This document shows, one piece after another, positions 5,923 to 63,863 of a stretch of DNA of 64,000 nucleotides. The notes under the pieces were generated by a model. That model was not told the DNA's origin, did no database searches, and worked only from the letters and a program-made list of their open reading frames with translations. The first letter of the stretch is position 1, and each line of letters starts with the position of its first letter. A program made the position numbers and the translations under genes. The stretch lies in the IMG/VR virus record IMGVR_UViG_3300028886_001504; one strand, 5' to 3'. This DNA is from a virus.

Positions 5923-5948
5923 CTTTTTGGTTTTTCAAACTATTTATA
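5923..5948 (+). promoter_or_regulatory. promoter-like 26-mer CTTTTTGGTTTTTCAAACTATTTATA
   Basis: Identical 26-mer at 12506-12531 upstream of tnpB; core AAACTATTTATA recurs upstream of every + strand gene. Confidence 0.5.
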
Positions 5949-5983
5949 TACAAAGATATGAAATTTTTTAAAAACAACAAAAA

Positions 5984-7192
5984 ATGAATGACGTAACATG
6001 TAAAAAACTGTTTAACACCGAAGATGGTAAGCAAAAACGAATGGTTAGTATTTTAAAAATTTTTAGAGAAAACAAGAATGTGGAAGAATATGTAAAAAAC
6101 AGATATTCGGACTCCACATCAATTAAAGAAAGTGTTTATCGTATATTAAATAATATTGAAATTAGGCCACAGTGTAGGTGCGGAAAAGTATTAGAGTTTG
6201 ATTATCCTCTAAACACTTTCCATAAATATTGCTGTTCAAAATGCCAAAATTCAGACCCAGAAAAGATTAAAAAAGACAAAAAAACTAAACTGGATAAATA
6301 TGGGTCAGAAAATTACAACAATTTTGAAAAAATGAAAGAAACTTGCTATGAACGCTATGGAACAACATCTTTCACTAAGACGAATGAGTTTATAGAAAAA
6401 ACAAAAAAGACTAATTTTGAAAAGTATGGTGTAGATTGGTGATTACAGACTGATACTTGTAAAGATGAAACGAAAAAAGTAAAAAAAGAAAAGTACGGTG
6501 ACGAGAACTATAATAATCGAAATAAGGCGAAAAATACATCACTAGAAAGATATGGGGTTGAAAACACTATGCAATGGGAGGGTTCAAAGCAAAAAGAAAA
6601 AGAAACTTGCCTAAAAAGATACGGTGTTACTTCTTATGCTAAGACAGATGAGTTTAAGAAAAAACTAAAAGCCACTTATCTTAAAAAATGAGGGGTTGAC
6701 AATTGCACAAAAAGCGAAGAATGAAAAAACAAATGATATTCAAATGAAGAGTGAGTAAAAGAAAAAGTAGATAAAATCTACAACACTATGTTAAAAAACT
6801 GTAGTTTTTCACATTCTAAACCAGAGCAAGTTATCTTCAATTTCTTAAAAAATGAGTATCCTGATACAATTTATCAATACAAAGAAAAAAGATACCCCTT
6901 CAAATGTGATTTTTATATCCCTTCAAAAGATTTATTTATTGAATACAACGGCTATTGGGCACATGGCGGACACTTTTTTAACGAGAATGATGAAAAAGAT
7001 GTAGAAAAACTGAAATCATGAAAAGAGAAAAGTAAAAAATCTAAACAATACGAAAATGCAATAAAGACATGGACAATAAAAGACCCTTTGAAACTTAAAA
7101 CTTTTCAAGAAAACAATCTTAAACACATAATACTGTGATATGACAGTTTTAAAAATTTAGAGCAGATAAAAGAAATGGTGGACGAATTTTAG
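5984..7192 (+). CDS. homing-endonuclease-like protein: Zn finger, four ~35-aa repeats (ETC..RYG), C-terminal DUF559/Vsr-like nuclease; 7 in-frame TGA read as sense
   Basis: One frame from 5984 to TAG at 7190-7192 with TGA at 6440, 6689, 6722, 6734, 6752, 7019, 7136 and no TAA/TAG; C-terminal CDFYIPSKDLFIEYNGYWAH matches the DUF559 pattern. Confidence 0.6.
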
Positions 7193-7200
7193 TCCACCAT
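7173..7200. terminator. bidirectional hairpin aatggtggac...gtccaccatt
   Basis: Inverted repeat between convergent genes. Confidence 0.5.
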
Positions 7201-7205
7201 TCTTT

Positions 7206-8357
7206 TTATTTAGCATATGCTTGCTTCCCATTATTTGCAAGAATTGACAGTTCTGTATTTTCTTTTAGTTCTTCAATAGTATTGCTATTAGTATATGTCA
7301 TACAACTTCTGAGATAAGAATCCATATTTGTTATCCAGTGTTTTAGAGAATACTTTACTTTAACTGGTTTACAAATTCCTTCACTAACTTTAGAGCCATC
7401 ACCACCTATTAGTTTTTGAGAATACCTATGTGACATACCCCTATACATCCTATACGGTATTAATAGTTTTCTTGTTTTACCCAGAAAGTTTAAATCTTCT
7501 TCTGTGTATTTCTTATAATTTTCATATTGTTCTCTTGTCAAATATGAACCGTTGGAGAAATCTTCTTCCGTTTCTGCATAGCCTATCTCTCCACATGCTT
7601 CTTCACATTCGGCAAACAATTTGCCAATCATAACAAAATCACCACCTAGTGCAAGACTTTTCTGTATTTTATCATACCAGTCAATTCCACCATCAACAAT
7701 TATTTTAGTATATTTTTTTCCATTAGGATGTGCATCAATCCATTTGCTTCTTTCGATATTAATATCATCAATTAATGTTGCAGCGCCTGTGTATACTCCA
7801 ACAGCACATGCCGTCGTACACCGACTTCCAGAACCAATACAGAGCCTCATATACGAGATACCCGCATCACAATAAAACGAATATGCTAATTCATTGTTTA
7901 CATTTCCTGTCATTAAAACAATCCTTTCTCCGTATTTGTTTTTGATTTTTTTACAAATCTCATATAAAGAGTTTAATGTTCCATGTGCCATATCAATACA
8001 AATGTATTGAACCTTGTCAGATAAATCAAACATTTCTTTTTCAAAAATGTCATACACTTCTTTTTCTGAAAAACTAACAAATGTTTCTTCTGATAATTTT
8101 AATCTATCTTCCATTGTGCACCTTTGCATAATTGACCTAGGAATTACAGGCGTTATTTTATTTTCGATGAAAACTTTATAATTTTTTTCATCAATAACGC
8201 TTTCCATTGGCGAAGCAAAGATAGGATACATTTCTCTTCCACAAACAGTTACAAAAGGATTGATATCACCCCTATGTTCTGTATAACAAATTGGTGACTG
8301 TCTAATCCCTACATCATCAAGACCGTAGGTAATTTTTGTGAGTTTACTTTTATTCAT
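7206..8357 (-). CDS. IMPDH/GMP reductase family protein (GuaC-like)
   Basis: Catalytic loop CIGSGSRCTT; phosphate-binding VDGGI...GGDFVMIG; start set at MNKSKL after the upstream stop. Confidence 0.7.
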   Translation of the reverse strand: MNKSKLTKITYGLDDVGIRQSPICYTEHRGDINPFVTVCGREMYPIFASPMESVIDEKNYKVFIENKITPVIPRSIMQRCTMEDRLKLSEETFVSFSEKEVYDIFEKEMFDLSDKVQYICIDMAHGTLNSLYEICKKIKNKYGERIVLMTGNVNNELAYSFYCDAGISYMRLCIGSGSRCTTACAVGVYTGAATLIDDINIERSKWIDAHPNGKKYTKIIVDGGIDWYDKIQKSLALGGDFVMIGKLFAECEEACGEIGYAETEEDFSNGSYLTREQYENYKKYTEEDLNFLGKTRKLLIPYRMYRGMSHRYSQKLIGGDGSKVSEGICKPVKVKYSLKHWITNMDSYLRSCMTYTNSNTIEELKENTELSILANNGKQAYAK

Positions 8358-8370
8358 GTTACGTCTTCCA

Positions 8371-8613
8371 TTACTGTTGTGCATTAGGGTCACATAATTT
8401 TGCTTCAAACAATTTCTTTCCTTCAACAATTACTTCCATGCCATCTGTTTTGTTTTCAATACAATAGTTTTGGAAATAGAAAGAAAACAATGCAACAATT
8501 TCGTTTGGTGTAATTTCGCGTGAATCTTTGCTTAGTTTGTCACTATTTTGAAGTTTCTTAGATAAGAAAAGTTTGTTACCGTCTGATTTAAACGTATAAT
8601 CATTTGCTGCCAT
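8371..8613 (-). CDS. hypothetical protein
   Basis: 80 aa ORF. Confidence 0.4.
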   Translation of the reverse strand: MAANDYTFKSDGNKLFLSKKLQNSDKLSKDSREITPNEIVALFSFYFQNYCIENKTDGMEVIVEGKKLFEAKLCDPNAQQ

Positions 8614-8634
8614 AATAATATATTTTTAGTTTTG

Positions 8635-9660: not shown

Positions 9661-9891
9661 TTACAACATGATTACACCACCCCAAGACAATCCCATTATA
9701 ACAGACAGAATCAGTCGAAATTTGGCAAAAAATGTCGTGGCATTATTGATATCTTTTTCTTTGTCAAGCACTTGGAAATTGTTTTTCCAAGAGTTCGTGG
9801 CGTTTATATCGGTTACGATATTGCTTATGTACAAACATGTGGTAAATATTGCTACCACACAACAAATGTATTTTAATATTACCTGAATCAT
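9661..9891 (-). CDS. small membrane protein
   Basis: Hydrophobic 76 aa ORF. Confidence 0.35.
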   Translation of the reverse strand: MIQVILKYICCVVAIFTTCLYISNIVTDINATNSWKNNFQVLDKEKDINNATTFFAKFRLILSVIMGLSWGGVIML

Positions 9892-9938
9892 GTTTCAAAT
9901 ATATGTTTTATTTTTGTAATAAACAAAAAAAGAAGGTT

Positions 9939-10229
9939 TTAATAGACCCTCCTAAAAGTTTTTCTGTGTTTTGCGCAGTCTACGATATATTCTCTTCGTA
10001 GACGTATGCATTCTGCTATTGCGCCAGATTGGTCGTTGCCAAACGGCTTTGTTTCTTTTGCATAGTCTCCTGAGTTTCCACCAAATGATGCTACATCAAT
10101 AGCGAGGAAAAAACCACCATCGCCTTTCCATACTTGGTACATGCTTTTTGCTTGCTTTCTAAACTCCCTTAAGTAATAGGTGTTAAGGTGGTCATGTGTC
10201 AGTACACGTTTAATTTTCTTTTTTTCCAT
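9939..10229 (-). CDS. hypothetical protein
   Basis: 96 aa ORF. Confidence 0.35.
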   Translation of the reverse strand: MEKKKIKRVLTHDHLNTYYLREFRKQAKSMYQVWKGDGGFFLAIDVASFGGNSGDYAKETKPFGNDQSGAIAECIRLRREYIVDCAKHRKTFRRVY

Positions 10230-11079
10230 TTTCTGTATTAGTTGTCATAAGTTTAAAAAATTCTTCTTTCTCTAACGGAGTAGCATCAGTGGCTACCCAA
10301 GCATTACGTTTCACCATAATCGTAGCACCATCTGGATATTTCTTGTTTGGCTTGATTGTTACTTCGTGCTCCTGTTCCACACGATGTATGATACGGCCAT
10401 ACTTCAAGCCATTTTTATAGCAATTCCAATCAATACCTTTTTCTTCTTTCATTTTAGCAATTTGTTCATCGGTATTAAGGTTAAGTAATTCCTTGTGTGA
10501 AAGGTATGTCTGTGCAGCCTGTTGCTTAGAGTTTTTGATGCAATCCAGCTGGCGGTATTTAAACCATGCAAAAGCATCATTGTCAGAAGGAACATTCCAG
10601 CATTTGCAATCAAATTGTGCTAATTTCTGGTTCTCAATAAGATTCGTTGCCTCATTTATTTTATAAATCGTATCTATGCAATCAATTTTGAAAGTGTCGT
10701 AATCCCTACTTTTTATCTCATAAAGGATTGCAAGCTGGTTAAACTTGGCTGTAGCCAAAGATGCAATGATACTCAAAATTTTGCACATTCTGTTACTAAA
10801 GAACGGTGTGGCTTCGCCCTCATCTTTGAGAAGAAAACTGATTTCATCAGATTGCACAAACGCAATTTTAACTCCCTGTACATTTTCACACACATACTTT
10901 GCTGTTTCATTCATCATATTCACAAAGTCCATATCGAATGGCTTTCCGAAATGGTTTTTAATGAGTTTGCTAAAAGCGCGTCCATCACACATTACCAAAA
11001 CATTGGTGTTTGGTAGAAGTCTGTAATCTGTGAGTCCTCTGTAATACTCACCCTTTTCTTTTAGGTTTTGGAAAATCAT
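10210..11079 (-). CDS. tRNA-His guanylyltransferase-like (Thg1-like) 3'-5' nucleotidyltransferase
   Basis: MCDGRAFSKL...KPFD...AFVQSDEISFLLK matches the Thg1 catalytic core. Confidence 0.7.
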   Translation of the reverse strand: MIFQNLKEKGEYYRGLTDYRLLPNTNVLVMCDGRAFSKLIKNHFGKPFDMDFVNMMNETAKYVCENVQGVKIAFVQSDEISFLLKDEGEATPFFSNRMCKILSIIASLATAKFNQLAILYEIKSRDYDTFKIDCIDTIYKINEATNLIENQKLAQFDCKCWNVPSDNDAFAWFKYRQLDCIKNSKQQAAQTYLSHKELLNLNTDEQIAKMKEEKGIDWNCYKNGLKYGRIIHRVEQEHEVTIKPNKKYPDGATIMVKRNAWVATDATPLEKEEFFKLMTTNTENGKKEN

Positions 11080-11417
11080 AATCTTTCTATAATTTGTTGC
11101 AAATATACAACTATTTTCTTTACTAACAAACTTTTTTTCACTATTTTCATATTATGAAATACGAATCGCCTAAAATAATCAAAGAATACCCCATTAAAAT
11201 AGAAGATTCACTACTTTCTGGGTCTGTTGTCTCAGAAAATAGTGAAGTTACGTCTACAGGACAAGAAGTTGAAACCTATACTATTGATACCTTCGATGCT
11301 GATGGTAATAGTCTCTGGTATTAATCATGTTCATTGTCGGGATTATAGGGGCAAGTTCGTGGGTTATAGTCATAACCCTCTTGTGGCATTGGGCAATGAT
11401 AGTTATGCCAACAATCT

Positions 11418-12153: not shown

Positions 12154-12384
12154 TTAATCAATAATCGTCAGATAAACGCCATGTTGGTAATACAATGTAT
12201 CCGATAAATCATCCTCATTTTTGCAGATATATTTCTCCAAATACTTATTAAGGTTCGCTCTATGGATTATCATTCTACCATTAGGTATGTCAATGATGTC
12301 ATCATCAGAAACAATCTTATTTCTGAAATCAATCTCTTTTGCAAGCGTCTTAAAATCCTCAAGTGTTAGTTTCCGTGTTTTCAT
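12154..12384 (-). CDS. hypothetical protein
   Basis: 76 aa ORF. Confidence 0.4.
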   Translation of the reverse strand: MKTRKLTLEDFKTLAKEIDFRNKIVSDDDIIDIPNGRMIIHRANLNKYLEKYICKNEDDLSDTLYYQHGVYLTIID

Positions 12385-12505
12385 GATAATACTGCAAGGA
12401 AACCCACTACTTTAGTGGTGGGAGGAATTGCAGTTAATCCTTTTTTCTGTTAAACTCTTTATTTTTCACAACAAAAATACTATATTTTTTTTTGAAAAAC
12501 AAAAA

Positions 12506-12531
12506 CTTTTTGGTTTTTCAAACTATTTATA
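12506..12531 (+). promoter_or_regulatory. promoter-like 26-mer identical to 5923-5948
   Basis: Exact repeat; 18 nt upstream of the tnpB ATG. Confidence 0.5.
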
Positions 12532-12548: not shown

Positions 12549-13757
12549 ATGAATGTAATTACCTATAATGTAGAACTTAACCCAACACCAGAAACTTTCA
12601 ACTACTGGAAGAAAATGCTGGTGTTGTATGCACAGGCATATAATGACTGTGCAAACTACATTGTGGATAAAAAACTTCCTCTTTCCATTAAAACCGTTCA
12701 CAACAAAGTCTACGATAGGCTTCGGAAAGCCTACCAAGAACTCCCTTCACAAGCCGTTATCAGACTTTACAAGGATGTTATTCCTGCGTTCAAGTCTATA
12801 CGCTCGAACAAACAAAAAGACACTGAAACGCCACAGAAGAAAAATCTGTCAATGAGGCTTGACAAACGCCTCTACACAAGAGTGGATAGCGATGGTATTG
12901 TAATCACCTCAGAGGTAGCTAGAAAACGTGTTAAAATACCATTTGTCTTGTATGATAAAGTAACAGAACTTCTAAGCAAATACGAAGTATCTGACCCAAC
13001 GATTTTCATTCGTGATAACAGGTTATACCTGTCAATACCGTTTTCAATCCCAACCATTGTCACCGACAATGACAATGCTGTTGGCATTGACCTTGGCATT
13101 AAACGGTTGTTCGTTACCTCAGAAGGTGTGGCATTTAAAGACAAAGCATATCTTCGTGAGCGAAGGAAGGTGCGGCACAATAAACGCAAACTACAAGAAA
13201 AATCAAATAAAAGTCGCACGGCAAAAAAACACCTTAAGAAAATCAAAAGAAGGGAAGTCAACCTCTCAAAAGATATGTTGCATAGAGCAACTAACGCAGT
13301 TCTCGAATCAACATCAGCATCAGTTCTTGTAGTCGAAGACCTATCGAAGATAAAAACCAAAACCTCCAAAACCAAAGAAGGGTTTAAGAGAACAAAACAC
13401 AATAATTCTTTCTCTCAAGTTCCCGTTAGGGAATTCAGAGACATGTTGGCTTACAAGGCACAGTTACACGGAAAACGTGTTGAAACAGTTTCTCCAACTT
13501 ACACCAGTCAAATGGATTGCCGTACTTCAAATAGAGACGGCAACAGAAAAGGTTGCCGATACTATTGCTCAGACGGAATCGTCTTTGACGCAGATTGGAA
13601 CGCAGCAGCCAATATCGCTATTAGAGCGAACCACCCGTTATCGAATATACTGCCATTGGATGGCACACTTAAATTCCTGAACGGCAGGGCACAGTCAATT
13701 GCCCATACGACGAAGGACACACCCTTTCGTCAAGCCCACGAATTAATTCGTGGGTAG
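12549..13757 (+). CDS. tnpB: TnpB (IS605 OrfB-family RNA-guided nuclease)
   Basis: RuvC-like GIDLGIKRLFV; C-terminal Zn finger CRTSNRDGNRKGCRYYC with DADWNAAANIA. Confidence 0.85.
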   Translation: MNVITYNVELNPTPETFNYWKKMLVLYAQAYNDCANYIVDKKLPLSIKTVHNKVYDRLRKAYQELPSQAVIRLYKDVIPAFKSIRSNKQKDTETPQKKNLSMRLDKRLYTRVDSDGIVITSEVARKRVKIPFVLYDKVTELLSKYEVSDPTIFIRDNRLYLSIPFSIPTIVTDNDNAVGIDLGIKRLFVTSEGVAFKDKAYLRERRKVRHNKRKLQEKSNKSRTAKKHLKKIKRREVNLSKDMLHRATNAVLESTSASVLVVEDLSKIKTKTSKTKEGFKRTKHNNSFSQVPVREFRDMLAYKAQLHGKRVETVSPTYTSQMDCRTSNRDGNRKGCRYYCSDGIVFDADWNAAANIAIRANHPLSNILPLDGTLKFLNGRAQSIAHTTKDTPFRQAHELIRG

Positions 13758-13761
13758 TTGA

Positions 13762-14394
13762 CTATAGTTCGGTTTTAATGTCAACTCTTTTCATTAGTTT
13801 CTTAAACAGATTAATGGTAGTGTCAATATCAAAATCAGCGCTGTGCAGTTCACCTTCATTAATGGATAAGCACCCAAGCAGCATTGCAACAGTGCCAAGT
13901 TTGAAATTATCTGGTTTGATGCCCATAGGAGGAAGCACCAGCATAGCAAGCTGACGCACATCCATAGTTACAACCTTATTGAAGAAATTTGACTTATAAA
14001 ACCCTTGTTTATATCTCTCTGGATTAGGGCTAATCTCGTGATAACGAGCAAAAAAATTGTATAGGAAATCATCATCAAACTTGGCGTTGTTGTATCCAAC
14101 TGTAATGAACTTCTCATACAAGTCACGATTGAACGGGTCAACATACTTTAATAACATTGTACAAAGTTCCTTATAGACCTCCTCCCCAGAAGGATATGCC
14201 ATAATTTGTTCCTCCGTTACGTGACTGACTTCAAGAGCCTTCTCGTCAATCAAAGCACCGTCAAACGGCTTAATATGATAGTTGAAGGTTTCTTTTAATT
14301 TACCATCAACGAAAATTTTTCCACTAAACTGATGAATGGCGTTCTTATTAACATCCGTTCCAGTTGTTTCTAAATCGTAAAAAAATAGTTTCAT
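13762..14394 (-). CDS. DnaQ-like 3'-5' exonuclease (DEDD)
   Basis: Exo I FYDLETTG, Exo II FDDDFL, Exo III HSADFD. Confidence 0.75.
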   Translation of the reverse strand: MKLFFYDLETTGTDVNKNAIHQFSGKIFVDGKLKETFNYHIKPFDGALIDEKALEVSHVTEEQIMAYPSGEEVYKELCTMLLKYVDPFNRDLYEKFITVGYNNAKFDDDFLYNFFARYHEISPNPERYKQGFYKSNFFNKVVTMDVRQLAMLVLPPMGIKPDNFKLGTVAMLLGCLSINEGELHSADFDIDTTINLFKKLMKRVDIKTEL

Positions 14395-16348: not shown

Positions 16349-16426
16349 AGATTTTACAAAAACAAAAATAGGTATTATTTAGTTAATTTCCAAATAATAC
16401 CCATCAAAAGTTGTACCAAAAATAAA

Positions 16427-20890: not shown

Positions 20891-20898
20891 CAAAGATA
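20891..20898 (-). promoter_or_regulatory. Bacteroidota-type -7 element
   Basis: CAAAGATA upstream of minus gene start 20861. Confidence 0.45.
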
Positions 20899-20953
20899 TG
20901 TTAAAAAAAGTTAATCTCAAAATATTTATTAAGAAATAAGTAGCAATAAAAAG

Positions 20954-22833: not shown

Positions 22834-22898
22834 CTATGCAAGAAATCTTCGAAAAGTTAAGCTAAAAAGTTTTATTCACCAAATTTTTTCACAATTTT

Positions 22899-27110: not shown

Positions 27111-27150
27111 AACAAATCAAAGATAGGTAATAATTTTGAAAAAACAAAAT

Positions 27151-29803: not shown

Positions 29804-29811
29804 CAAAGATA
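29804..29811 (-). promoter_or_regulatory. Bacteroidota-type -7 element
   Basis: CAAAGATA 17 nt upstream of minus start 29787. Confidence 0.45.
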
Positions 29812-29832
29812 TGCTTTTTTTTCAAGTTTAAC

Positions 29833-29844
29833 AAACTATTTATA
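29833..29844 (+). promoter_or_regulatory. AAACTATTTATA promoter-like motif
   Basis: 20 nt upstream of + gene 29864. Confidence 0.45.
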
Positions 29845-32117: not shown

Positions 32118-32125
32118 CAAAGATA
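32118..32125 (-). promoter_or_regulatory. Bacteroidota-type -7 element
   Basis: CAAAGATA. Confidence 0.4.
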
Positions 32126-32136
32126 TGCACTATTTT

Positions 32137-32388
32137 TTAATTCTCCAAATTTTTTTTAACATTTTTTTCGTTTTCCTTTTTTTCTATCTCTTTTAAGGCG
32201 TTGTTTTTATTTTCAACCAGCAATAATGTCCAAAAGATAACACCAAGTAAGTTTAACGCTGCCATTCCAGTTTCTCCGTTGTTAAAGCAACTGAACATCA
32301 CGTCAGAACTACACCAAATCATAAAACCATCAATCAAGGTTAATAAAAAATAAAACAGTTTCATATTATAATACGTTTTGTTTAACAA
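32137..32388 (-). CDS. small membrane protein
   Basis: 83 aa hydrophobic ORF. Confidence 0.35.
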   Translation of the reverse strand: MLNKTYYNMKLFYFLLTLIDGFMIWCSSDVMFSCFNNGETGMAALNLLGVIFWTLLLVENKNNALKEIEKKENEKNVKKNLEN

Positions 32389-32821: not shown

Positions 32822-32833
32822 AAACTATTTATA
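32822..32833 (+). promoter_or_regulatory. AAACTATTTATA promoter-like motif
   Basis: 19 nt upstream of + gene 32852. Confidence 0.45.
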
Positions 32834-41210: not shown

Positions 41211-41218
41211 CAAAGATA
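41211..41218 (-). promoter_or_regulatory. Bacteroidota-type -7 element
   Basis: CAAAGATA upstream of minus start 41178. Confidence 0.45.
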
Positions 41219-41243
41219 TACATTTTCGCGGAAAAAACCAAAA

Positions 41244-42992: not shown

Positions 42993-43000
42993 CAAAGATA
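42993..43000 (-). promoter_or_regulatory. Bacteroidota-type -7 element
   Basis: CAAAGATA upstream of 42971. Confidence 0.45.
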
Positions 43001-43021
43001 ATAATAATTTCTTTAATCTCC

Positions 43022-43033
43022 AAACTATTTATT
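43022..43033 (+). promoter_or_regulatory. orphan AAACTATTTATT motif with no downstream + ORF
   Basis: Followed ~15 nt later by a terminator hairpin. Confidence 0.35.
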
Positions 43034-43078: not shown

Positions 43079-43168
43079 TTTAACAATATCCTTACTGTTT
43101 TTTTAACCATCCGCTTTATGTCGGATTCTGTTTTTTGATATTAACAACTTTTAAGCATCTACAACTGT

Positions 43169-44047
43169 TCAGCCAGATGGAATACCGTCTGCACCTGTTG
43201 TCCAACCTGACATATTTGAACTTTTAACAAAAGTTCCTGTGTTTCCTACACCTTCTACCCATTCAGTTGTACTGGATGGAAAGTATCTGGTTGCGAGGCA
43301 TTTGATGTAATTTAAACTAGCGCAATCACAAAACATTTGATAATAACAAGAACTCAATATGGTTGTTGCGGGTAATTCAGGTGCTTTTGTTAATGATGTA
43401 CAACTTCTAAACATATATTGATAGCAAGCTTGTTCTAAAGTAGTTGCGGGTAATTCAGGTGCATTAACGAGGCTAGTGCAATTATAAAACATCCCATAAT
43501 AACAGCAATAAGTTAAAGTAGTGGCTGGCATAATTAATTTACTAGCATCTGTTAACCCAGTACAATAAATAAATAACCCATTAAAATTATACATATCTTG
43601 TAGTGTTGTAGCGGTAGCAAAACCAGCGCTACTAATCATACTCATTATGTTACCTTTTACTTTAAATTGACATGTTGTACCGTAAAAACTGTTAGACTGA
43701 CTTTCTCTATTGTCGCCATATGTTGTATTATCCCCCCTAAACTGAACAGTATCACCCGAAACAACGCTTATAGATACGCCTTCTGTATTAGCTGTTATAC
43801 TTGTCCATTCTCCGTTATTCTTCTTGTATTCAATTGTTTTTGGTGTACAATTTTGTGCTATTCATATAATATTACCATCGCCAGTTACTTCAAATGTAAG
43901 TGGTGTGCACAGAAGTTTTTCATAACCTGATTTGTTATAATCAACCCCTTTCCCTTCGGTATAAGAGACTCAAGGTTCTAAATAACTATTATCTCTTGCC
44001 TCCGTATAAGCAGATTGTGATTCAAAGTAATGCGTGTATTTTCCCAT
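43169..44047 (-). CDS. BspA-type leucine-rich-repeat protein; 2 in-frame TGA
   Basis: Track ORF 43169..43645 continues upstream in frame to ATG 44045-44047 across TGA at 43862-43864 and 43970-43972; repeats ..ATTL..CY.YMF..CTSL..APELP. Confidence 0.5.
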
Positions 44048-44058: not shown

Positions 44059-44071
44059 TCTCTATAAATAG
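44059..44071 (-). promoter_or_regulatory. AACTATTTATAGA promoter-like motif (minus orientation)
   Basis: Reverse complement of ctctataaatagtt, 12 nt upstream of ATG 44047. Confidence 0.4.
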
Positions 44072-44089
44072 TTGATACGCTACAAAACA

Positions 44090-44791
44090 CTAGAATTTAA
44101 TCATGAAGGTTCCACCGTGTATATGGTTTTTGTTTGTGTAATCATACTGGTATAAGTATGAGAATCCGTATTTATCTTCGAAGAACATACCAACCTGACC
44201 GACAACAGATGGCATTGTTGTAATACCAGCACTTACAAACGGACTAAATTTCTTTAGCATCATATTATCATACTCTATCTGTTTAATTACAGGTACAAAT
44301 GTATAGTCAAGATGCCTCAGTTGGTTGTTTGAGATAATTATGTCAACATCACAACGGCCAAGTGTATCTTCATTAAATAATGTTTGGTAATATTCTCTTT
44401 CTTTAACCCAGTCTTTTGCTATTGCGGTAAATATTTTCAATGAGTCATCCTTTGTAGTTGGGTTAATATAAATCAAACTATCTTTTGTTGGAAAAAGTTC
44501 ATCAAAGAGACCATTTGCGACACAATATTTAATTAAATCACCAGTATCAACCTCTGCTGGTATTCTAACCTCTACAGGATATGGTACAGGAACTTCTTGT
44601 TTGACAGTATCCCCAGGAATGTAGATTGGTGGTTTTTCACCAGGCATTTTAATGGTTTTCCTTCCAATGAAGAAACCAACGCCTAATAGTAATATTGCTA
44701 AAGCGATAATCCCGCCTATTTTTCAATTGTTTCTTTGTGTGGTGTTGACATTTATTACTGTTGCGCCACTATTTGTCATATCATTTTCCAT
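44090..44791 (-). CDS. N-terminally membrane-anchored protein; 1 in-frame TGA
   Basis: Track ORF 44090..44647 extends in frame to ATG 44789-44791 through TGA 44723-44725, adding a TM helix IGGIIALAILLLGVGFFIG. Confidence 0.45.
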
Positions 44792-44829
44792 AACTAATCT
44801 TTTTTAAATAAATACTTTACAAAAAGAAA

Positions 44830-48459: not shown

Positions 48460-48497
48460 TTGCTAAATATACACTATTTTTCTTGATTTAGCAAATT
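48460..48497. terminator. inverted repeat ttgctaaat...atttagcaa
   Basis: 9-bp arms 3' of the rfbD-like gene. Confidence 0.4.
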
Positions 48498-48500
48498 ATA

Positions 48501-55223: not shown

Positions 55224-55686
55224 CTTTTTTAAGTTTTAATATAGTTTTTATTTTCTCAATATCTTCTATTGTAATTCCAGTTTCCCTATCTGTCTTAATA
55301 AAGTTATCGGCTTGTCCTAATAACATGTCACTATCATCATCTACAATCACATATTCATAGTGTGAATCTGCATAACATGGGCCAAACTTCGTACCCATAC
55401 CATGAAATGTGTCTCGTAACCACTTTTCAATCTCATTACCCCTACATATCCAATCTTGATAAAAATGTTCGGTATATCCAACGATTGGTAAAGTTAATCC
55501 ACACCCACGAAGAGATTTCTCAGTTCTTCCGTTATCATAACCCCACGAAGAGGATATTACTACCTCTACACCTTCCAACTCATTCAATAAAGCGACACAC
55601 GCTGGGTCTATGAACCCTTTACCTGTCTTTAAGAATTCATATCCAGCAAGTACACCATCAATATCCAAAAAAATAATACGCTTCAT
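55216..55686 (-). CDS. HAD-like phosphatase
   Basis: Motif I FLDIDGVL; -7 motif at 55695-55702. Confidence 0.55.
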   Translation of the reverse strand: MKRIIFLDIDGVLAGYEFLKTGKGFIDPACVALLNELEGVEVVISSSWGYDNGRTEKSLRGCGLTLPIVGYTEHFYQDWICRGNEIEKWLRDTFHGMGTKFGPCYADSHYEYVIVDDDSDMLLGQADNFIKTDRETGITIEDIEKIKTILKLKKDE

Positions 55687-55694: not shown

Positions 55695-55702
55695 CAAAGA
55701 TA
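55695..55702 (-). promoter_or_regulatory. Bacteroidota-type -7 element
   Basis: CAAAGATA 9 nt upstream of 55686. Confidence 0.45.
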
Positions 55703-55746
55703 TTGTTTTTTTAGAAAACAAACAAAAAAAACCGCAGACTTTTTGT

Positions 55747-56442
55747 CTACGGTTTATCTTTGGTTTCACCAGTGTTTCTATATACATTAAATTGCGGAAA
55801 CTGCATAAAGTCGTTTTCTTCGTCTTCTATTTTATCATCGGTTTGTTTTTCACCTAAAACAAGATGTTTATACGTCCTTTCGAGTCACTTCTTGAAATCA
55901 TCAACTGACATTTCATGTTTAGCATAGTTACATTTAGCACAACAAGGCACTACGTTGTCTAATGTGTAGCCTTTACTAGAATCCACTCTATCTATACCAT
56001 TGTGTGCTCATGGTTTTTGTGTTTTTTGCATATATTGTAATTCATACTCTCTAACTTCTGGTGATGCACCACAATAATAACAATCTTGTTCCATTATCTC
56101 TATAAACTCTTCAAATGTTAAATCAAAGTCTAGTCCTCTTTTTGACGCACCTGCTCTATAATCCTTTAATAGTCTATTTTTCAATCCAGAATGTACAATA
56201 CCCTGACTTTTCCTCAAAGCTGTTTCTGTTGATGTTTTCTTGTTTGTACACGAATGACATCCGAAACGGTTGACTAATGTTTTTTCTTTCGCATGAAATT
56301 CATTACCACAATCACATCTACATTCCCACAGTCAAACGTTTTTACCTTTTACTGTTGATTTTCTACAATAATTCTTAATGAGGATAAATCTATCATTAAT
56401 CCTATCCCCTTCCTTGTAATTTGTTTTGTGTTTTGGTCCCAT
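55747..56442 (-). CDS. HNH homing endonuclease; 3 in-frame TGA
   Basis: ATG 56440-56442 to TAG 55747-55749 in one frame with three TGA; Zn finger WECRCDCG; HNH core HNGIDRVDSSKGY...NVVPCCAKCNYAKH; track fragment 56008..56217 is in the same frame. Confidence 0.6.
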
Positions 56443-56482
56443 AATTACTCTTCCTTTTCTATTAGCACTCTTTTACATAAAA

Positions 56483-56515
56483 AGTCCTGAATTAGAAAAA
56501 ATCTAACCCAGGACT
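56483..56515. terminator. hairpin agtcctg...caggact
   Basis: 3' of the band-7 gene. Confidence 0.45.
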
Positions 56516-58743: not shown

Positions 58744-59819
58744 CTGTCACCAGAACCACTGGTTAAATCCATCAACGATGCTAAAAGATTAACATACCTT
58801 CTTGGTGTAGTCCCTTGACTTACCATATTCCCCTTAAGGCTCATGCCATTTTTTAAAGAAATTTCGCGTTCAATAGCTTTTTGAAGTTCCTCACCTGAAA
58901 GGTCTTTATATTGGTCATCAGCAAGCGCCTTAACCTTGACTTCGTTTGGTGTACTGTCAAGAAGTTCTTCATCGGTGTAACCAGGACTTGAAACAGGGTC
59001 TGCCATTTCCCAGATGCCAGCATCCAAATCCTTGTAACTGCCGTCACCATATGCCATAACCACTAAGTCTTTCCCACATACACCTTTAATAAGGTATTTA
59101 ACATCAACACATACGTCCTTTGCTATTTTTCTGGTAGGGAACAGTTTTAGTTTTTCTTCCGTGGCTTTATTTGTACCAAGCAAACCAAAATCTGGATTCT
59201 TGTCTTTACAAATATCCGCTAACGTGATAAACGTTTTCCCATCAAGTCTCCCAAGCGGAGGATTATATTGATTACTCCAATTTTTATAATCATGAAGCCC
59301 ACAATAAATCGCACATTTATGAAAATACCAAGTATCTTCATTGTTGAGAATTTCGCACTCACATCCTTCATCCTTACAAATTTGGCTATAATACTCTTTG
59401 ATGTTAACTCCAGTAAACGGATTAACGTCACAGGGATTTCCAACTTCATCGTACTTAGGCATTACAATAGTGACTTTCTTTGTCGCTCTAGCAACACCTT
59501 TAAGAATCATACTGAACCTATTACGAGAATAGATAGGATTGATTAACGTGATTTCTTCTGAGTTACCAGAAAGCCTCTTAACATCCTCCGCAATTTCATC
59601 AACGGTTACATATAAGTTTGCAGCCCTTGCAATCACCGATTCAGTAATACCAATAACATCCTTATCCGACAAGTCATCACCGTTATTCGTTACAGATAAA
59701 ATACTGTCTGCAACAATCTTTGCCAAATTATCTCCTGAACGTATAATCGGGCATTTTACACCCCTTGCTGTTAAAGTTTTCTCTGCCATATTATTTTGAC
59801 TCCTTTTTCTTTTTAACAA
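58704..59819 (-). CDS. hypothetical protein
   Basis: 371 aa ORF. Confidence 0.45.
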   Translation of the reverse strand: MLKRKRSQNNMAEKTLTARGVKCPIIRSGDNLAKIVADSILSVTNNGDDLSDKDVIGITESVIARAANLYVTVDEIAEDVKRLSGNSEEITLINPIYSRNRFSMILKGVARATKKVTIVMPKYDEVGNPCDVNPFTGVNIKEYYSQICKDEGCECEILNNEDTWYFHKCAIYCGLHDYKNWSNQYNPPLGRLDGKTFITLADICKDKNPDFGLLGTNKATEEKLKLFPTRKIAKDVCVDVKYLIKGVCGKDLVVMAYGDGSYKDLDAGIWEMADPVSSPGYTDEELLDSTPNEVKVKALADDQYKDLSGEELQKAIEREISLKNGMSLKGNMVSQGTTPRRYVNLLASLMDLTSGSGDRCTPIVLVQNYFR

Positions 59820-60900
59820 CCTTCTTACCTTTTACAGTCTTTACAGTCTTTTTCTCTCCAACATTGATTTCTTCATCAATTTTGAGTGTTTCTTTATCAA
59901 TACCAAGAGTGTCAACAAACTTTTCGAGCGTCAAATCACACGTCTCGTCAATCCAATCGGTTACATAATAAAGTTTGTTGGAACCAGCAATCACACCAAA
60001 CAAAATGGGGTCTTTCTTTTTGGCAATCTCCTTTTCCGTTGGCTTGTATGATTCTCCCTTCGGGTCGTAGTGCAAAATGACGTAATTGTCAAATACCCTC
60101 AAATCATTTGCTTTCTTGATTGTATCAATAACCTCCTGTGGTAAAGGTCTTGAGAAGTTCTTAATATATGTGAGTGCAAGCCCCTTCTCGGTTTTAAGTG
60201 CAAAATCAACAACTTGCTTCTCGGTTACAACATAATAATAACCCTCTGAATAAAGAAGTGATTCATATTTGTTGGCAATCATTTCCTTAAGCAAGGACTC
60301 AACCAACGCTGTTTGGCCTACATTATTTGCATTGTGAATTGCAATAAGATATTTACTGATACGATTTACATAAGATTGAGCAGACTCCTGACTGGTAAGT
60401 TTTACTTTAGTAAAGAACTCAACCGCATCAAACTCATATTTTTCCTTCTTTGTGAGAAACTTATCAAAAAGTTTCTTAAATAACGAAACCTTCTTCTTGT
60501 CCCCAGTTTCAACTCCACTGGAGGTAAAGACAAACGTATTGTTGTTGGTAAATCCATGCATACCGCCGTACCCACTGAGAACGTTGTTCAACTTATTGCT
60601 CTTGATTAAACAAGTAAGTTCATCAAGCGATGCAGCAGCAATCTTATCAAAATCTACCTTTCCGTCGACCACATAAGCGTCTGGTGTTCCATAAACAACA
60701 AACGGGGTTGGTTGTGTTGTATATATATTTGTGGTACTTGTACCAGCATCGGTGGTGCTTGGAAGGTTGATGCTTTGTCGCATAACGATTTTCGCTTGTT
60801 CTTCTTTAACCCCTCCAATGTTCTTCCATTTAGGGAGATTTTGGTCAATAACAACACCATTTTCAAAAATGGCAAGTCTCTTTTTGTCTGTTGTAAGCAT
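59791..60900 (-). CDS. hypothetical protein with Lys-rich C-terminus
   Basis: 369 aa; -7 motif 60925-60932. Confidence 0.45.
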   Translation of the reverse strand: MLTTDKKRLAIFENGVVIDQNLPKWKNIGGVKEEQAKIVMRQSINLPSTTDAGTSTTNIYTTQPTPFVVYGTPDAYVVDGKVDFDKIAAASLDELTCLIKSNKLNNVLSGYGGMHGFTNNNTFVFTSSGVETGDKKKVSLFKKLFDKFLTKKEKYEFDAVEFFTKVKLTSQESAQSYVNRISKYLIAIHNANNVGQTALVESLLKEMIANKYESLLYSEGYYYVVTEKQVVDFALKTEKGLALTYIKNFSRPLPQEVIDTIKKANDLRVFDNYVILHYDPKGESYKPTEKEIAKKKDPILFGVIAGSNKLYYVTDWIDETCDLTLEKFVDTLGIDKETLKIDEEINVGEKKTVKTVKGKKVVKKKKESK

Positions 60901-60924: not shown

Positions 60925-60932
60925 CAAAGATA
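60925..60932 (-). promoter_or_regulatory. Bacteroidota-type -7 element (with CAAA -33-like ~22 nt further)
   Basis: CAAAGATA upstream of 60900. Confidence 0.45.
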
Positions 60933-60991
60933 TACACTTTTTTTTATAAAACAAAAAAAGTTGCAGATTTTTTTCTACAACTTTTAATTTG

Positions 60992-61076
60992 CGGAGGGTA
61001 CTGGATTCGAACCAGTGGACCCATACGGGTCGGCAGTTTAGCAAACTGCTGGTTTAAGCCACTCACCCAACCCTCC
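60992..61076 (-). tRNA. tRNA-Ser (anticodon GCU), type II with long variable arm
   Basis: Manual fold: acceptor GGAGGGT/ACCCTCC, anticodon stem GCAGT/ACTGC, loop TTGCTAA, T-loop GGTTCGAATCC. Confidence 0.65.
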
Positions 61077-61112
61077 AAAAGCACTGCATTTAAGGGAATG
61101 CAGGAAACCAAG

Positions 61113-61184
61113 AGTCAACGACTGGATTCGAACCAGCATAAAAAGGTTTTGCAGACCTTCCCCTAACCATTCGGGCACGTTGAC
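61113..61184 (-). tRNA. tRNA-Cys (anticodon GCA)
   Basis: Manual fold: acceptor GTCAACG/CGTTGAC, anticodon stem AAGGT/ACCTT, loop CTGCAAA. Confidence 0.5.
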
Positions 61185-61289
61185 GATGAAAACTCTTACA
61201 TTCCACTATCTCGCCCTATGCGTCTAGGGTCACACACCAGTTCGGGATGATTGATTTTTTTGCACACCAGTGTGAAGCATAGTCCGCGA

Positions 61290-61991
61290 TTACTTCTCCA
61301 GTTTATTGGGACTGGCGTTTCCTTTTGAGTTTGTTTTCCTTTTCGTTCTTGTCGATTTTCCAGTATTCAATGCTGAATAATTTACTGTCATAGCATGGTG
61401 ATTCGGGCATAAAACTTGAAGATTTTCTTCTTTACTATTGTTTGCATCACCATCAATGTGGTGTATTTCAACTATTGGTCTTCCACTCTTAGGATTTACT
61501 CAGTTACATCCACAAATTTCACAAGAACAATTTGTTTTTTCTAACATGTACCTTCTAACAAATTGTGATAGTTGTCCTACCCCTCTATTTCCACTACACT
61601 CTCCACTTTTTCATCTTAGAATATACTGTTTATATTCATACTCTCTTTGACAATGTGAACCACAAAATTTTGTGCTTTTTCTCAAATCCGTTATCTCTCC
61701 TCCACAATTCAAACACACTCTTTCATGTTTTTGTTTCCTCACCCTCTTCTTGTTATTATAAGATGCAGAACAGGAATGTGAGCAAAATAATTTCTGGTCC
61801 TTTTCAAGTTTTTTACCACAAACAATGCAATACTTAGTATTATTTAGTTTAATTGTTTCCAGTCAATCTTTTCAATCAACACCGTTTTCTTTTAAATAAA
61901 GTTTTACTTTTTCTCTGTTAGTGTAATTTGCTTTTCCATAAAGTTTTCTAGATACGTCATTTAACGACTTGCAGTCTTTCAATATTTCCAT
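61290..61991 (-). CDS. HNH homing endonuclease; 4 in-frame TGA
   Basis: ATG 61989-61991 to TAA 61290-61292 in one frame with four TGA and no TGG; Zn fingers CIVCGKKL...CSHSC; HNH core VEIHHIDGD...LQVLCPNHH. Confidence 0.6.
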
Positions 61992-62002
61992 ACTAGTATA
62001 AT

Positions 62003-62018
62003 GTTTATAAATAAATAG
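62003..62018 (-). promoter_or_regulatory. GACTATTTATTTATAA promoter-like motif (minus orientation)
   Basis: 12 nt upstream of the HNH ATG. Confidence 0.4.
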
Positions 62019-62065
62019 TCTCAAAAAGCCAAAATGTGTATTCGAAATTAAAGTTTTTAAATTAG

Positions 62066-62137
62066 AGCCTCCTGTCGGAGTTGAACCAACATTTCAAGAT
62101 TACAAATCATGCGTAATAACCGTTATACGAAGGAGGC
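62066..62137 (-). tRNA. tRNA-Thr (anticodon UGU), one U-U mismatch in the anticodon stem
   Basis: Manual fold: acceptor GCCTCCT/AGGAGGC, loop TTTGTAA, T-loop GGTTCAACTCC. Confidence 0.45.
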
Positions 62138-62247
62138 AATACTACGGAAAACTTTATTTTTTGTCCGCTATTTTTGGTGCAGATATTAATAAATACTTGC
62201 TGTTTGTTTTCCTACAGTAAACTTATGAAAAAAGAACTAATACTTTG

Positions 62248-62255
62248 CAAAGATA
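62248..62255 (-). promoter_or_regulatory. Bacteroidota-type -7 element upstream of tRNA cluster
   Basis: CAAAGATA. Confidence 0.4.
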
Positions 62256-62290
62256 TACACTTTTTTCTAAATAATCAAGTTTTTTTTGAA

Positions 62291-63520
62291 TTATTCTTCA
62301 AATGCTGCCAAACCGTCTGCTTCTTTTGATGCTTCTTGTCTTAGTATAACACCAAGTTCGTCAATGTTGATTGTTGCAGTATATTGTACTTTCTCCTTAT
62401 TGATTGTTCTTTCAAGTAAGAACAAAGGCTCGTTATTAACCCAGAAGAAAGAATCTTTTTGTTTTGTTCTGATATCAAGACCAGTTGCACAAAGATATGC
62501 TACATTGGAAAGTTTGAAAATTTTCTGTTTCATATTCTCTTCTTTCTTAAAATCATAGAACATCTTGAACTGTGCCAATTTATCAGGGTCATTCTGCAAT
62601 TCAACATCTTGTAATTTTGCAGCATATGAGTCAGAGACTTTGTAAAGCATTCTACCTAAAGAATCTGGAATTCTATCAATATCACCATCTTCTGTTACAC
62701 CATAGAAGATAGCTTCTTGGTCATCGACCCTTGAAAGCATGTTTCTGATGGAATATCCTGGTAATTCAACTTGTGTGGAAGGGTCTTCTGCATTTGTTCT
62801 GTATTTAATGTTTCTTGGTACATATTCACCAGTTTCATCGTCACCACTCCACTCGGTATCCGTTGCAATACCAAAATTTGCTGGTTCACCAATATACTTA
62901 TAGGTAGGACCATTTCTTTTAGGAGTATTGTGCCACACTTCATTACCGTCAGCATCTAAATCTTTATATTGAATACCCAATTCATCGTAATATTTGGGGT
63001 CAATCTTCGCAGTCATATCGTTATATGCTTGCGTGTTTCTTTCCTGTGCTTTTGCGTAGCCAGTTTGTCCTTGCCAATGAAGCCTATATTTGGTAAGTTT
63101 GATTACATATTTGTAGATTGCTTTGTTAAAAGCACGTTGTCCTTTATATAAACGGCCAGTTGGATTATCCCATTCGGTGTTTTTTGATTTGTCCATAAAA
63201 TCAACATATCTTTGTCGTGCTCTATCTGTCACATCTTCTGATACCATGGCATAGTCCATGTCATTCTCTACACCAAAATCACCAGCCATTGCACTCATTT
63301 TGTTATAGAGGTCTTCATTTGGATATTGACCAGGAATAGTATAAAGTTGAATATATCCTAATCTGACAAACTGTCCCTCTTGAATTTGTACTGTTGACAA
63401 GAAGTTTACCAAATCATTTGCCATAATCTGTTTTGATTCATTCAGTACTTGCCCCCATCCAGTTCTTGGGCTATTCATTCTCTCAATAAGAGATTTCATT
63501 TCGTTTAACTGTTGCTTCAT
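62291..63520 (-). CDS. hypothetical protein
   Basis: 409 aa ORF. Confidence 0.5.
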   Translation of the reverse strand: MKQQLNEMKSLIERMNSPRTGWGQVLNESKQIMANDLVNFLSTVQIQEGQFVRLGYIQLYTIPGQYPNEDLYNKMSAMAGDFGVENDMDYAMVSEDVTDRARQRYVDFMDKSKNTEWDNPTGRLYKGQRAFNKAIYKYVIKLTKYRLHWQGQTGYAKAQERNTQAYNDMTAKIDPKYYDELGIQYKDLDADGNEVWHNTPKRNGPTYKYIGEPANFGIATDTEWSGDDETGEYVPRNIKYRTNAEDPSTQVELPGYSIRNMLSRVDDQEAIFYGVTEDGDIDRIPDSLGRMLYKVSDSYAAKLQDVELQNDPDKLAQFKMFYDFKKEENMKQKIFKLSNVAYLCATGLDIRTKQKDSFFWVNNEPLFLLERTINKEKVQYTATINIDELGVILRQEASKEADGLAAFEE

Positions 63521-63551
63521 AATAGTATTTGTTTAAACAATAAATAGTTGA

Positions 63552-63800
63552 TTACTTTGTAAATACATCTTCGCCATATAAATCTTTAGTGATATCAACA
63601 CCGTCTGGGCCTTTTACGTGTATTACGTTATTCTCCATAATATAATATTGGTACATAAAGAAATCCAGTTTATCTTCTGGCTTGTAATCGGGAAAGTTCT
63701 CTTTAATCTCTTCTTCTGTGGCTCCAACTGCCATAAATTCACAATCTTCTGATGGGAGGATTCTGATGAGTTTCTTGTTTCCGTTTTCTGCTATAATCAT
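63552..63800 (-). CDS. hypothetical protein
   Basis: 82 aa ORF. Confidence 0.4.
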   Translation of the reverse strand: MIIAENGNKKLIRILPSEDCEFMAVGATEEEIKENFPDYKPEDKLDFFMYQYYIMENNVIHVKGPDGVDITKDLYGEDVFTK

Positions 63801-63852
63801 AGTTATTTGTGTTTAATTTTGTTCAAAAATACCAACAATTTACGAGAAAAAC

Positions 63853-63863
63853 AACTATTTATA
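63853..63863 (+). promoter_or_regulatory. AACTATTTATA promoter-like motif
   Basis: 10 nt upstream of the + ATG 63873. Confidence 0.4.

Follow-up and report, generated by a model that had tools for sequence, protein, structure and literature searches.

Does a megaphage whose accessory genes contain in-frame TGA codons transcribe these genes from a signal of their own, distinct from the host-type promoters that serve its core genes? The question is raised by a 64,000-nt stretch of viral DNA (IMG/VR record IMGVR_UViG_3300028886_001504, hereafter the window), which is contained in a 384,030-bp ENA contig (ERZ27256887 k141_2852081) and thus belongs to a megaphage, with a Bacteroidota host. The window has 36% GC and carries nearly all of its genes on the minus strand. 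An earlier note on its sequence had proposed that a host-like -7 box precedes the minus-strand core genes (class 1) and that a second, phage-specific motif (class 2) marks the + strand accessory genes and those read through TGA. We examined this proposal in a working sequence of 82.7 kb, the window plus 8.9 kb and 9.8 kb of flanks, with 10 kb more of the 384-kb genome examined beyond it. Two upstream-signal classes, distinct and non-overlapping, are supported. The observation was confirmed in substance and its coordinates were correct, with corrections needed to distances, exceptions and missed sites; of its interpretation, the two signal classes and the link to TGA, which behaves as a tryptophan (Trp) codon, held, and the mobility of the genes and the use of the motif without recoding had been missed.

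The second motif is enriched, and the enrichment is confined to a short core. The 12-mer AAACTATTTATA is found exactly at 5937, 12520, 29833 and 32822, with one mismatch at 63852 and 44063 and with two mismatches at 62010 and 44807, and a weak variant lies at 20919; these copies bear out both the placement of the motif before + strand genes (5937, 12520, 29833, 32822, 63852 and 20919) and its placement, in minus orientation, before the genes for a leucine-rich-repeat (LRR), a membrane and an HNH protein (44063, 44807 and 62010). The list of sites had lacked a copy at 63539-63550 (-), an orphan at 43022 (+) and a degenerate copy at 56477-56485 (-). At two mismatches, the full 12-mer is not enriched (26 copies against 22 expected). 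The 9-mer core ACTATTTAT, however, is present in nine copies in the window against 1.13 expected, a number reached in none of 100 shuffles, and all nine are intergenic where intergenic DNA makes up 7-9% of the window, so that the motif is not equally frequent in coding sequence. An unbiased 8-mer enrichment analysis put both motifs on top, with AACTATTT, ACTATTTA and CTATTTAT first and TATCTTTG, a form of the -7 box, next.

The core is also positioned relative to genes. Among the 13 copies of ACTATTTAT in the 82.7 kb, 11 are followed at 10-36 nt (mode 18-20 nt) by a same-strand open reading frame (ORF) of at least 60 codons, compared to a mean of 2.5 copies and 0.27 ORF-positioned copies for composition-matched 9-mer permutations, none of which reached 11 in 300 trials. 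Read in gene orientation, every strict copy except that at 43022 has a start codon closely downstream. Eight loci of related phages contain 25 copies, of which 17 precede an ORF where 0.78 would be expected, and conservation of the motif extends over a clade of megaphages of 375-393 kb. Class 2 is thus orientation-specific, intergenic and conserved in related megaphages before unrelated genes. In the crAss-like phage cr116_1 (100 kb examined) and in the 642-kb huge phage LR756502 (42 kb examined), the motif occurs without a consistent gene position; these phages do not use it, and it is therefore specific to the clade rather than a general signal of Bacteroidota phages.

The architecture of the class-2 sites resembles that of a promoter. 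Their consensus reads TTTT, about 10 nt, (A/C)AACTATTTAT(A/T), 3 nt, AAA, and ends 15-20 nt before the ATG. In a logo of 28 sites, a T-tract lies 12-15 nt upstream of the core (T in 19-22 of the 28; logo positions -15 to -13) and an AAA 4-6 nt downstream of it (A in 22-25 of the 28; logo positions +13 to +15), an arrangement that fits a -30 / -10 / +1 promoter with a 5′ untranslated region (5′-UTR) of about 12-15 nt. The core, TATTTAT(A/T), has no counterpart of the TTTG that forms half of a -7 box, and no -33 TTTG is found at the proper spacing, though the T-tract is kept. The + strand genes are embedded in minus-strand arrays with intergenic regions of just 72-96 nt; no same-strand TAnnTTTG was found in their upstream regions, where the motif is the sole shared element, nor upstream of the class-2 genes at large, save for a distant one before gene E.

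We then examined the link between the motif and the genetic code. The TGA genes are ORFs of 195-530 codons with one to seven in-frame TGA and no in-frame TAA or TAG. In the 82.7 kb, the strict motif precedes seven of nine TGA genes and five of about 106 others (odds ratio 71, Fisher p = 6e-7), in agreement with the correlation that had been claimed. By inspection of translations, four of the seven TGAs of gene A, which encodes a DUF7487 homing-endonuclease-like protein, align with Trp in its homolog in L050, a distant relative, and all four TGAs of gene H, an HNH endonuclease gene, align with Trp in a homolog at 17163-17819 of L060, a different large phage. The DUF7487 domain of gene A is continuous across its TGAs in Pfam. 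A 237-aa gene of the flanks differs from its ortholog in the close relative L004 by 16 nt and 3 aa, with three of three TGAs kept; purifying selection on the TGA-containing ORFs is supported at this level of comparison. Taken together, the Trp alignments, the conserved TGAs, the continuity of the domain and a terminator that lies beyond the TGA of gene D indicate that TGA is read as Trp in the motif-associated genes. By contrast, 34 large core genes contain 164 TGG and no TGA in 11,458 codons, and 13 genes terminate with TGA as a stop.

Recoding of this kind has a precedent. In a preprint by Borges et al. (10.1101/2021.08.26.457843), recoded stop codons are proposed to be a mark of the late or lytic genes of gut phages; promoters are not analysed there, the word occurring 0 times. 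As in these phages, TGA would serve as Trp in a subset of genes while the standard code is retained for replication and metabolism, where some genes still stop at TGA. Unlike in them, the recoded genes are scattered cassettes in a metabolic region rather than a contiguous structural block, and they are tied to an upstream motif. No paper on the motif, or on recoding tied to a promoter, was found in the literature.

The genes behind the motif differ widely. At 5937..5948 (+), AAACTATTTATA lies 35 nt before gene A (5984..7192, +; 402 codons, seven in-frame TGA, Pfam match at residues 138-345), within a segment that is inserted relative to L004 and L005. A second exact copy at 12520..12531 (+), which shares with the first a 26-nt block, CTTTTTGGTTTTTCAAACTATTTATA, lies 17 nt before gene B, a tnpB gene with OrfB_IS605 / Cas12f1-like TNB domains and no TGA (12549..13757, +), whose homologs in L045-L047 (55% identity) also have ACTATTTAT upstream. 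The copies at 29833..29844 (+) and 32822..32833 (+) lie 19 and 18 nt before the small-protein genes C (29864-30331, or 30358 if TGA is read through) and D (32852-33439, one in-frame TGA), both on the + strand, and terminators follow at 30364-30389 and at 33445-33464, the latter just past the TAA of gene D at 33439. The weak variant AAAATATTTATT at 20919..20930 (+) lies 26 nt before the GNAT gene J (20957-21310). At the end of the window, CAACTATTTATA at 63852..63863 (+) lies 9 or 15 nt before gene E (63873 onwards, +; 530 codons), which encodes an ArdC-like protein with an HExxH motif.

On the minus strand, CAACTATTTATA at 44063..44074 stands 15 nt before gene F, the LRR gene (43151..44047, three in-frame TGA), and the variant AAAGTATTTATT at 44807..44818, directly behind a terminator-like hairpin, stands 15 nt before gene G, which encodes the membrane-anchored protein (44090..44791, one in-frame TGA). 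The degenerate copy ACTTTTTAT at 56477..56485 lies 34 nt before the HNH-like endonuclease gene K (55747..56442, three in-frame TGA). Two further copies, AGACTATTTATT at 62010..62021 and CAACTATTTATT at 63539..63550, each lie 18 nt before their gene, namely gene H (61290..61991), in which all four Trp positions are TGA and none is TGG, and gene I (62291-63520), which encodes a 409-aa protein of unassigned function and has no TGA. The terminators after C and D, together with the hairpin before the motif of G, suggest that these are self-contained units. The orphan copy at 43022..43033 (+) has no + strand gene behind it and coincides with the -33 region of the class-1 promoter at 42993-43024; in the interval 43022-43073 there is no + strand ORF, and the hairpin that terminates gene F on the opposite strand lies within 15 nt of the motif. 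A cassette since lost may have left it behind, or it may act only as a -33 region.

In the flanks, the motif stands ahead of a second HNH gene, a GIY-YIG gene and the genes for the 237-aa protein and a 501-aa beta-helix-like protein. In relatives, it is found ahead of four or five TnpB genes, a GIY-YIG, a DUF7487 and another endonuclease gene and two HNH genes, as well as ahead of genes for a protein of the C/D family, an Amidase_3, an Amidase_2 (adjoining a membrane protein) and a Fib_succ_major tail-fibre-like protein; the peptidoglycan amidases were found in L014 and L026. Since the class-2 genes are unrelated to each other, the core that they share is therefore likely to be functional rather than inherited. 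Genes C and D have an N-terminal peptide motif in common, and this motif, (L/I)TE(N/S/Q)D(I/L)(K/R)..V.E.VKK(L/I), recurs in otherwise unrelated class-2 proteins (29864-29935 and 32852-32935 in the window; L014 12948-13376; L006 14190-14260, at the C-terminus; L050 12729-13703, internally). It may be a targeting or oligomerisation helix and recalls, by resemblance only, the capsid-targeting sequence of the T4 internal proteins.

Class 1 is of a familiar kind. Promoters of the primary sigma factor of Bacteroidota (sigma-A/ABfr) have TTTG at -33 and TAnnTTTG at -7. This consensus is well established and is attributed to Bayley et al. 2000. In the window, TATCTTTG matches 18 times where 4.3 matches are expected, and 16 of the 18 are on the minus strand; the full arrangement TTTG-N18-21-TAnnTTTG has 22 copies against 3.5 expected, a number that none of 100 shuffles attained. 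Sites of the E. coli sigma-70 type show no enrichment, with 58 found and 61 expected. Fourteen of the 22 full promoters lie 4-142 nt upstream of minus-strand start codons, and their -7 boxes read TATCTTTG, TATATTTG or TATTTTTG. As consensus and spacing are the same as in Bacteroidota sigma-A promoters, with no difference, a canonical sigma-A architecture is supported for the predicted class-1 promoters, which by themselves are ordinary. From their consensus, the host phylum is therefore taken to be Bacteroidota.

All ten minus-strand positions at which the earlier note had read TATCTTTG carry it. The claimed distance of 10-25 nt to the gene, on the other hand, holds for about half of them (the distances are 18, 142, 29, 16, 62, 32, 21, 8 and 24 nt at nine of the listed sites), and the box at 62248..62255 (-) does not precede a protein gene but lies 110 nt upstream of tRNA-Thr (62065-62137). 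The 14 positioned promoters, all on the minus strand, are at 1569..1599 (TTTG-N19-TATCTTTG; 18 nt before gene 1134-1550), 5951..5981 (an outward-facing part of the gene-A cassette; 142 nt before gene 5260-5808), 9896..9927 (4 nt before gene 9661-9891), 11100..11130 (20 nt before the Thg1 gene 10210-11079), 12472..12503 (87 nt before gene 12154-12384; divergent from tnpB), 16363..16394 (14 nt before gene 15146-16348), 20891..20921 (29 nt before gene 20610-20861), 27118..27148 (7 nt before gene 26403-27110), 29804..29835 (16 nt before gene 28987-29787), 32118..32149 (62 nt before the Ro-like gene 30409-32055), 41211..41242 (32 nt before gene 40486-41178), 42993..43024 (21 nt before gene 42408-42971), 55695..55726 (8 nt before gene 55216-55686) and 60925..60955 (24 nt before gene 59791-60900). 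The -7 boxes at 9896-9903, 27118-27125 and 55695-55702 end so close to the ATG (4-8 nt) that the mRNAs would have no leader or almost none. Further upstream, an extended block, AAAATAGTGAAAAAAAGTTTGTTA, is common to three class-1 promoters (minus strand, 1590-1612, 11121-11143 and about 22860-22885) and may mark a sub-class, such as immediate-early promoters, or the binding site of a regulator.

By their predicted products, most class-2 genes are selfish or mobile, being homing endonuclease and TnpB genes. Gene A, its motif and the outward-facing class-1 promoter are absent as a block from the close relatives L004 and L005, in which homology resumes at AACTGCCAT. In an alignment of 5809-7205 of the window with 6445-6512 of L004 and with L005, the cassette replaces the 3′ end of an IMPDH-like gene (392 aa compared to 377 aa). 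A gene A homolog of 55% identity adjoins IMPDH in L050, again with the motif upstream. By this comparison, the gene-A cassette is an insertion that carried its own putative promoter, and its outward host-type promoter would restore the transcription of the downstream core gene. The tnpB gene is single-copy in the 384-kb contig. The hairpin that follows it at 13757-13790 ends in CGTGGGTAGTTGAC, and the 55%-identical homologs of L045-L047 end in GTGGGTGGTTGAC; this hairpin probably represents the element's right end together with the scaffold of its omega-RNA. Like phage morons and free-standing homing-endonuclease cassettes, the class-2 genes are inverted monocistronic units with terminators, show presence/absence polymorphism in the case of gene A, and comprise HNH, GIY-YIG, DUF7487 and TnpB genes; unlike these, they share one clade-specific type of putative promoter instead of generic host promoters, and the gene-A cassette bears an outward host-type promoter as well.

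The core genes recognised among the arrays encode an NAD-dependent ligase, NAMPT, NAD synthase, RNA ligases, a CCA-adding enzyme and Thg1, and further a Ro-like protein, DnaK, RmlA, RmlC and RmlD. The genes for RmlA, RmlD and RmlC of the dTDP-rhamnose pathway, with a nucleoside 2-deoxyribosyltransferase-like gene, lie at 47388-50486 (-) and may serve the modification of DNA or of a surface glycan. The Ro-like / DUF7788 RNA-binding protein gene (30409-32055, -) lies in a region of higher GC (about 45% in the bin 30001-32000, against 36% for the window), which suggests that it was recently acquired. An array of tRNA genes, 16 according to ARAGORN in its standard mode, extends over L003 1-8300 (about 65.5-73.8 kb, beyond the window end) and 60991-62137 of the window; it is split by the HNH and GIY-YIG genes, each with a class-2 motif ahead, and ARAGORN's intron mode predicts several candidate intron-containing tRNAs within it. 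Rfam recovered three tRNAs only, and no known RNA family overlaps the motif.

The phage belongs to a clade of 195-393-kb contigs in IMG/VR and ENA with 72-82% NAMPT identity. Among GenBank phages, no near relative was found (megablast with 20 kb; tblastn with gene I) and NAMPT had no match at 60% identity or more; the Ro-like protein had no relatives in IMG/VR. A 20-mer scan of viral contigs returned 0 matches and that of one metagenome chance matches only, and look-ups of HNH homologs led to tRNA arrays or unrelated phages, without structural genes. L060, a 128-kb ENA contig (positions 6705-6776, 10001-10597 and 17163-17819), has a CUA (amber) suppressor tRNA among the 32 of a tRNA array and shares the HNH cassettes, which again have a class-2 motif ahead of them; its other promoters, likewise those of L050, resemble TTTGTATATTA.

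How might these observations fit together? The core minus-strand arrays, which include the genes for NAD salvage, RNA repair, DnaK and dTDP-rhamnose, would be transcribed by the host RNA polymerase with its primary sigma factor from TTTG-N19-20-TAnnTTTG. The class-2 signal would be a compact promoter in which a -10-like core stands between a T-tract upstream and an A-rich start site, and whose recognition probably needs a phage-encoded or phage-modified specificity factor. It would drive promoter-ORF-terminator units, mostly inverted relative to the core arrays, which encode homing endonucleases, TnpB and host-interaction or anti-defence proteins and, in relatives, lysis enzymes. These genes would be expressed when a UGA-reading tRNA is present, most likely late; translated under such conditions, they would be free to drift from TGG to TGA (Trp), so that these codons could accumulate, and the core genes would not. 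The mobile elements of the clade would have adopted the class-2 promoter, which would travel with them. We lean modestly towards this account as a whole, with host-type core arrays and a phage-directed, most likely late, class-2 transcription coupled to UGA reading. Three of its parts, the role of the motif as a promoter, its recognition by a phage factor and its late activity, are each what we infer to be most likely from the sequence.

Several observations weigh against this account. The TGA genes G and K have one-mismatch cores only. Conversely, the motif-bearing genes B, C, I and J (J with a weak copy) lack in-frame TGA, so that tnpB is not the sole exception to the correlation, as had been claimed, but is joined by 29864-30331, 62291-63520 and 20957-21310; the truncated gene at 63873, named as a possible further exception, contains two TGAs past the window end. 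Relatives use the motif without any TGA recoding, and the promoter class is therefore likely to be older than the recoding. No suppressor tRNA with a UCA anticodon was found by ARAGORN, including its relaxed and intron modes, among the 16-22 tRNAs of the 82.7 kb, and no sigma factor or RNA polymerase subunit is among the Pfam matches in the same sequence; sigma-like Pfam matches were likewise lacking when the further 10 kb was included, and no gp55 or gp33 homolog was seen there, these factors not having been searched for specifically. The tight motif-to-ATG spacing is unusual for a promoter and would suit a 5′-UTR element too. Finally, the motif, read as its reverse complement, provides the -33 TTTG of the opposite host-type promoter in five or six divergent regions, at a spacing of exactly 19-20 nt; part of its conservation in these regions may serve this opposite promoter.

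The alternative that survives best concerns the timing. The motif could be a real phage-specific promoter whose class is early rather than late. A phage RNA polymerase, either early or packaged in the virion, would recognise it, and anti-defence and selfish genes would be expressed right after infection. The ArdC-like protein E, the LRR protein F and the small C/D family have the look of anti-defence or host-interaction proteins, and the early promoters of AR9 and phiKZ are extended, conserved and AT-rich with a start 6 nt downstream (PMC5312081), which resembles the core plus AAA. The promoters of AR9 define temporal classes (early AAATATATATTAT-N6-G, late AACA-N6-TA/G; PMC5312081); they are, as here, short, conserved and AT-rich, with a start a few nt downstream, in a very large phage (PMC5312081). 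The sequence here differs, however, the other class is host-type, and no phage RNA polymerase genes were seen in the examined part of the genome. In addition, an in-frame TGA needs a suppressor that is already present, and the core genes with host promoters avoid TGA entirely; it can therefore be argued that they are translated before suppression is available and the class-2 genes after. The timing is further hinted at by a 10-kb array of small early-type genes, the only kind of gene found further along the genome, which has one class-1 promoter and no class-2 motif. Together with the amidases and the tail-fibre-like gene behind the motif in relatives, this dense motif-free array gives indirect support to late timing, and an early class is unlikely.

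An element in the 5′-UTR is a somewhat weaker candidate. The motif would then be a translational operator or enhancer, bound by a phage protein or by the Shine-Dalgarno-independent ribosome of Bacteroidota. This would account for the tightness of its distance to the ATG (mode 18-20 nt), by contrast with class-1 boxes, which lie 4-142 nt from the start. However, it would leave the inverted + strand genes without a promoter, since their 72-96-nt regions offer no other shared element, and the two flanking tracts, T-rich about 13 nt ahead of the core and AAA 4-6 nt behind it, suit -30 / -10 / +1. Moreover, the motif of gene G stands directly behind a terminator hairpin, and one copy is just 5 nt from the ATG, which leaves no room for such an element. 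We consider a purely translational role to be decidedly unlikely.

It could also be that there is no separate class and that host RNA polymerase with sigma-A, without modification, recognises the motif as a weak form of the -7 box that needs no -33 element. TATTTATA matches TAnnTTTG at four of its six specified positions (T1, A2, T5 and T7), the upstream T-rich element resembles a displaced -33, and motif-bearing HNH cassettes are found in a phage with different recoding (L060, with its amber suppressor). On the other hand, the invariant AC before TATTTAT and the loss of TTG are not known as features of Bacteroidota promoters, and the T-tract lies about 6-7 nt closer than a -33 box. The crAss-like Bacteroidota phage and LR756502 do not use the motif, and the strict separation of TGA between the two classes implies different timing. 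Hence, we give little credence to a sigma-A variant.

The overlap with class 1 raises a further possibility, namely that the motif mainly serves host-type promoters of the minus strand, as their extended -33 or UP region (TATAAATAGTTTG), and that its position before + strand genes is a by-product of the compactness of divergent regions. In the divergent regions, its reverse complement TATAAATAGTTTG lies 19-20 nt upstream of the opposite TAnnTTTG, and the initial CAAA of the motif, read in reverse complement, forms the -33 TTTG of that promoter at 29833 (29804-29835), 43022 (42993-43024), where there is no + strand gene, and 20919 (20891-20921); the same spacing recurs at 32822, at 63852 and at the flank site L006 16002. 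The two predicted promoter types thus stand back to back with a shared edge. This overlap is not the sole role of the motif, because an opposite -7 box at this distance is lacking for six copies or more, as at 5937, 12520, 44063, 44807, 62010, 63539 and two sites in L003. Most class-1 promoters lack the motif at -33, at least five copies would, when reversed, face antisense or tRNA sequence, and the 15-20-nt spacing to a same-strand ATG would be left unexplained, so that this possibility is highly improbable.

No more probable is that the motif is inherited cassette DNA without a function in expression, such as a homing site or the end of an insertion sequence (IS), since, although genes A and tnpB have an identical 26-nt block, the HNH upstream regions of L003 and L060 are homologous past the motif and the gene-A cassette is inserted, the 28 sites before non-homologous genes keep only a 9-12-nt core with two short flanking tracts, non-mobile genes (for amidases, LRR, membrane and ArdC-like proteins) carry the motif, and in L045-L047 it lies more than 90 nt inside a conserved element and not at its end. 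As an IS end or homing-site end, the motif was rejected, the unrelated genes sharing the core only.

The phage-directed late promoter that we favour has a counterpart in T4. The T4-type late promoters have TATAAATA at -10 and no -35, depend on gp55/gp33 and the sliding clamp, and drive homing-endonuclease, internal-protein and lysis genes. Class 2 is like them in having a single short AT-rich core near the gene, in serving selfish endonuclease and lysis genes and in coexisting with host-type promoters, which in T4 are early. It differs in its gene-orientation core ACTATTTAT(A/T), its conserved AC, its upstream T-tract and its Bacteroidota host. An identity of the motif with TATAAATA itself was considered and rejected: in gene orientation it reads TATTTATA, TATAAATA being found only in the reverse complement, which points away from the genes at 44063, 62010, 63539 and two L003 sites.

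In summary, the novelty lies in the second motif and in its association with genes that are recoded and for the most part selfish, a variant of phenomena that are known separately as phage late promoters, code-switch regulation and promoter-bearing mobile cassettes. Recoding has been proposed to time late genes in gut phages, and no transcriptional signal had been tied to recoded genes before. The motif is a simple, scannable DNA signal that co-occurs with TGA-recoded genes; it gives a handle for predicting temporal classes in uncultivated megaphages, could aid gene calling in genomes with two genetic codes, and permits testing whether the code switch and the promoter switch are coupled. A more tentative possibility, which we hold to be doubtful but worth stating, is a double lock, in which genes that are harmful early (nucleases, TnpB and lysis genes) or needed only late would require both the AACTATTTAT promoter and a UGA-reading tRNA. 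If true, mobile elements would have adopted both features, and their expression would be restricted to the late stage in phages that have this system in common, so that both their cost and their spread would be limited. The finding thus suggests how homing endonucleases and TnpB elements may fit into the regulatory programme of their host phage.

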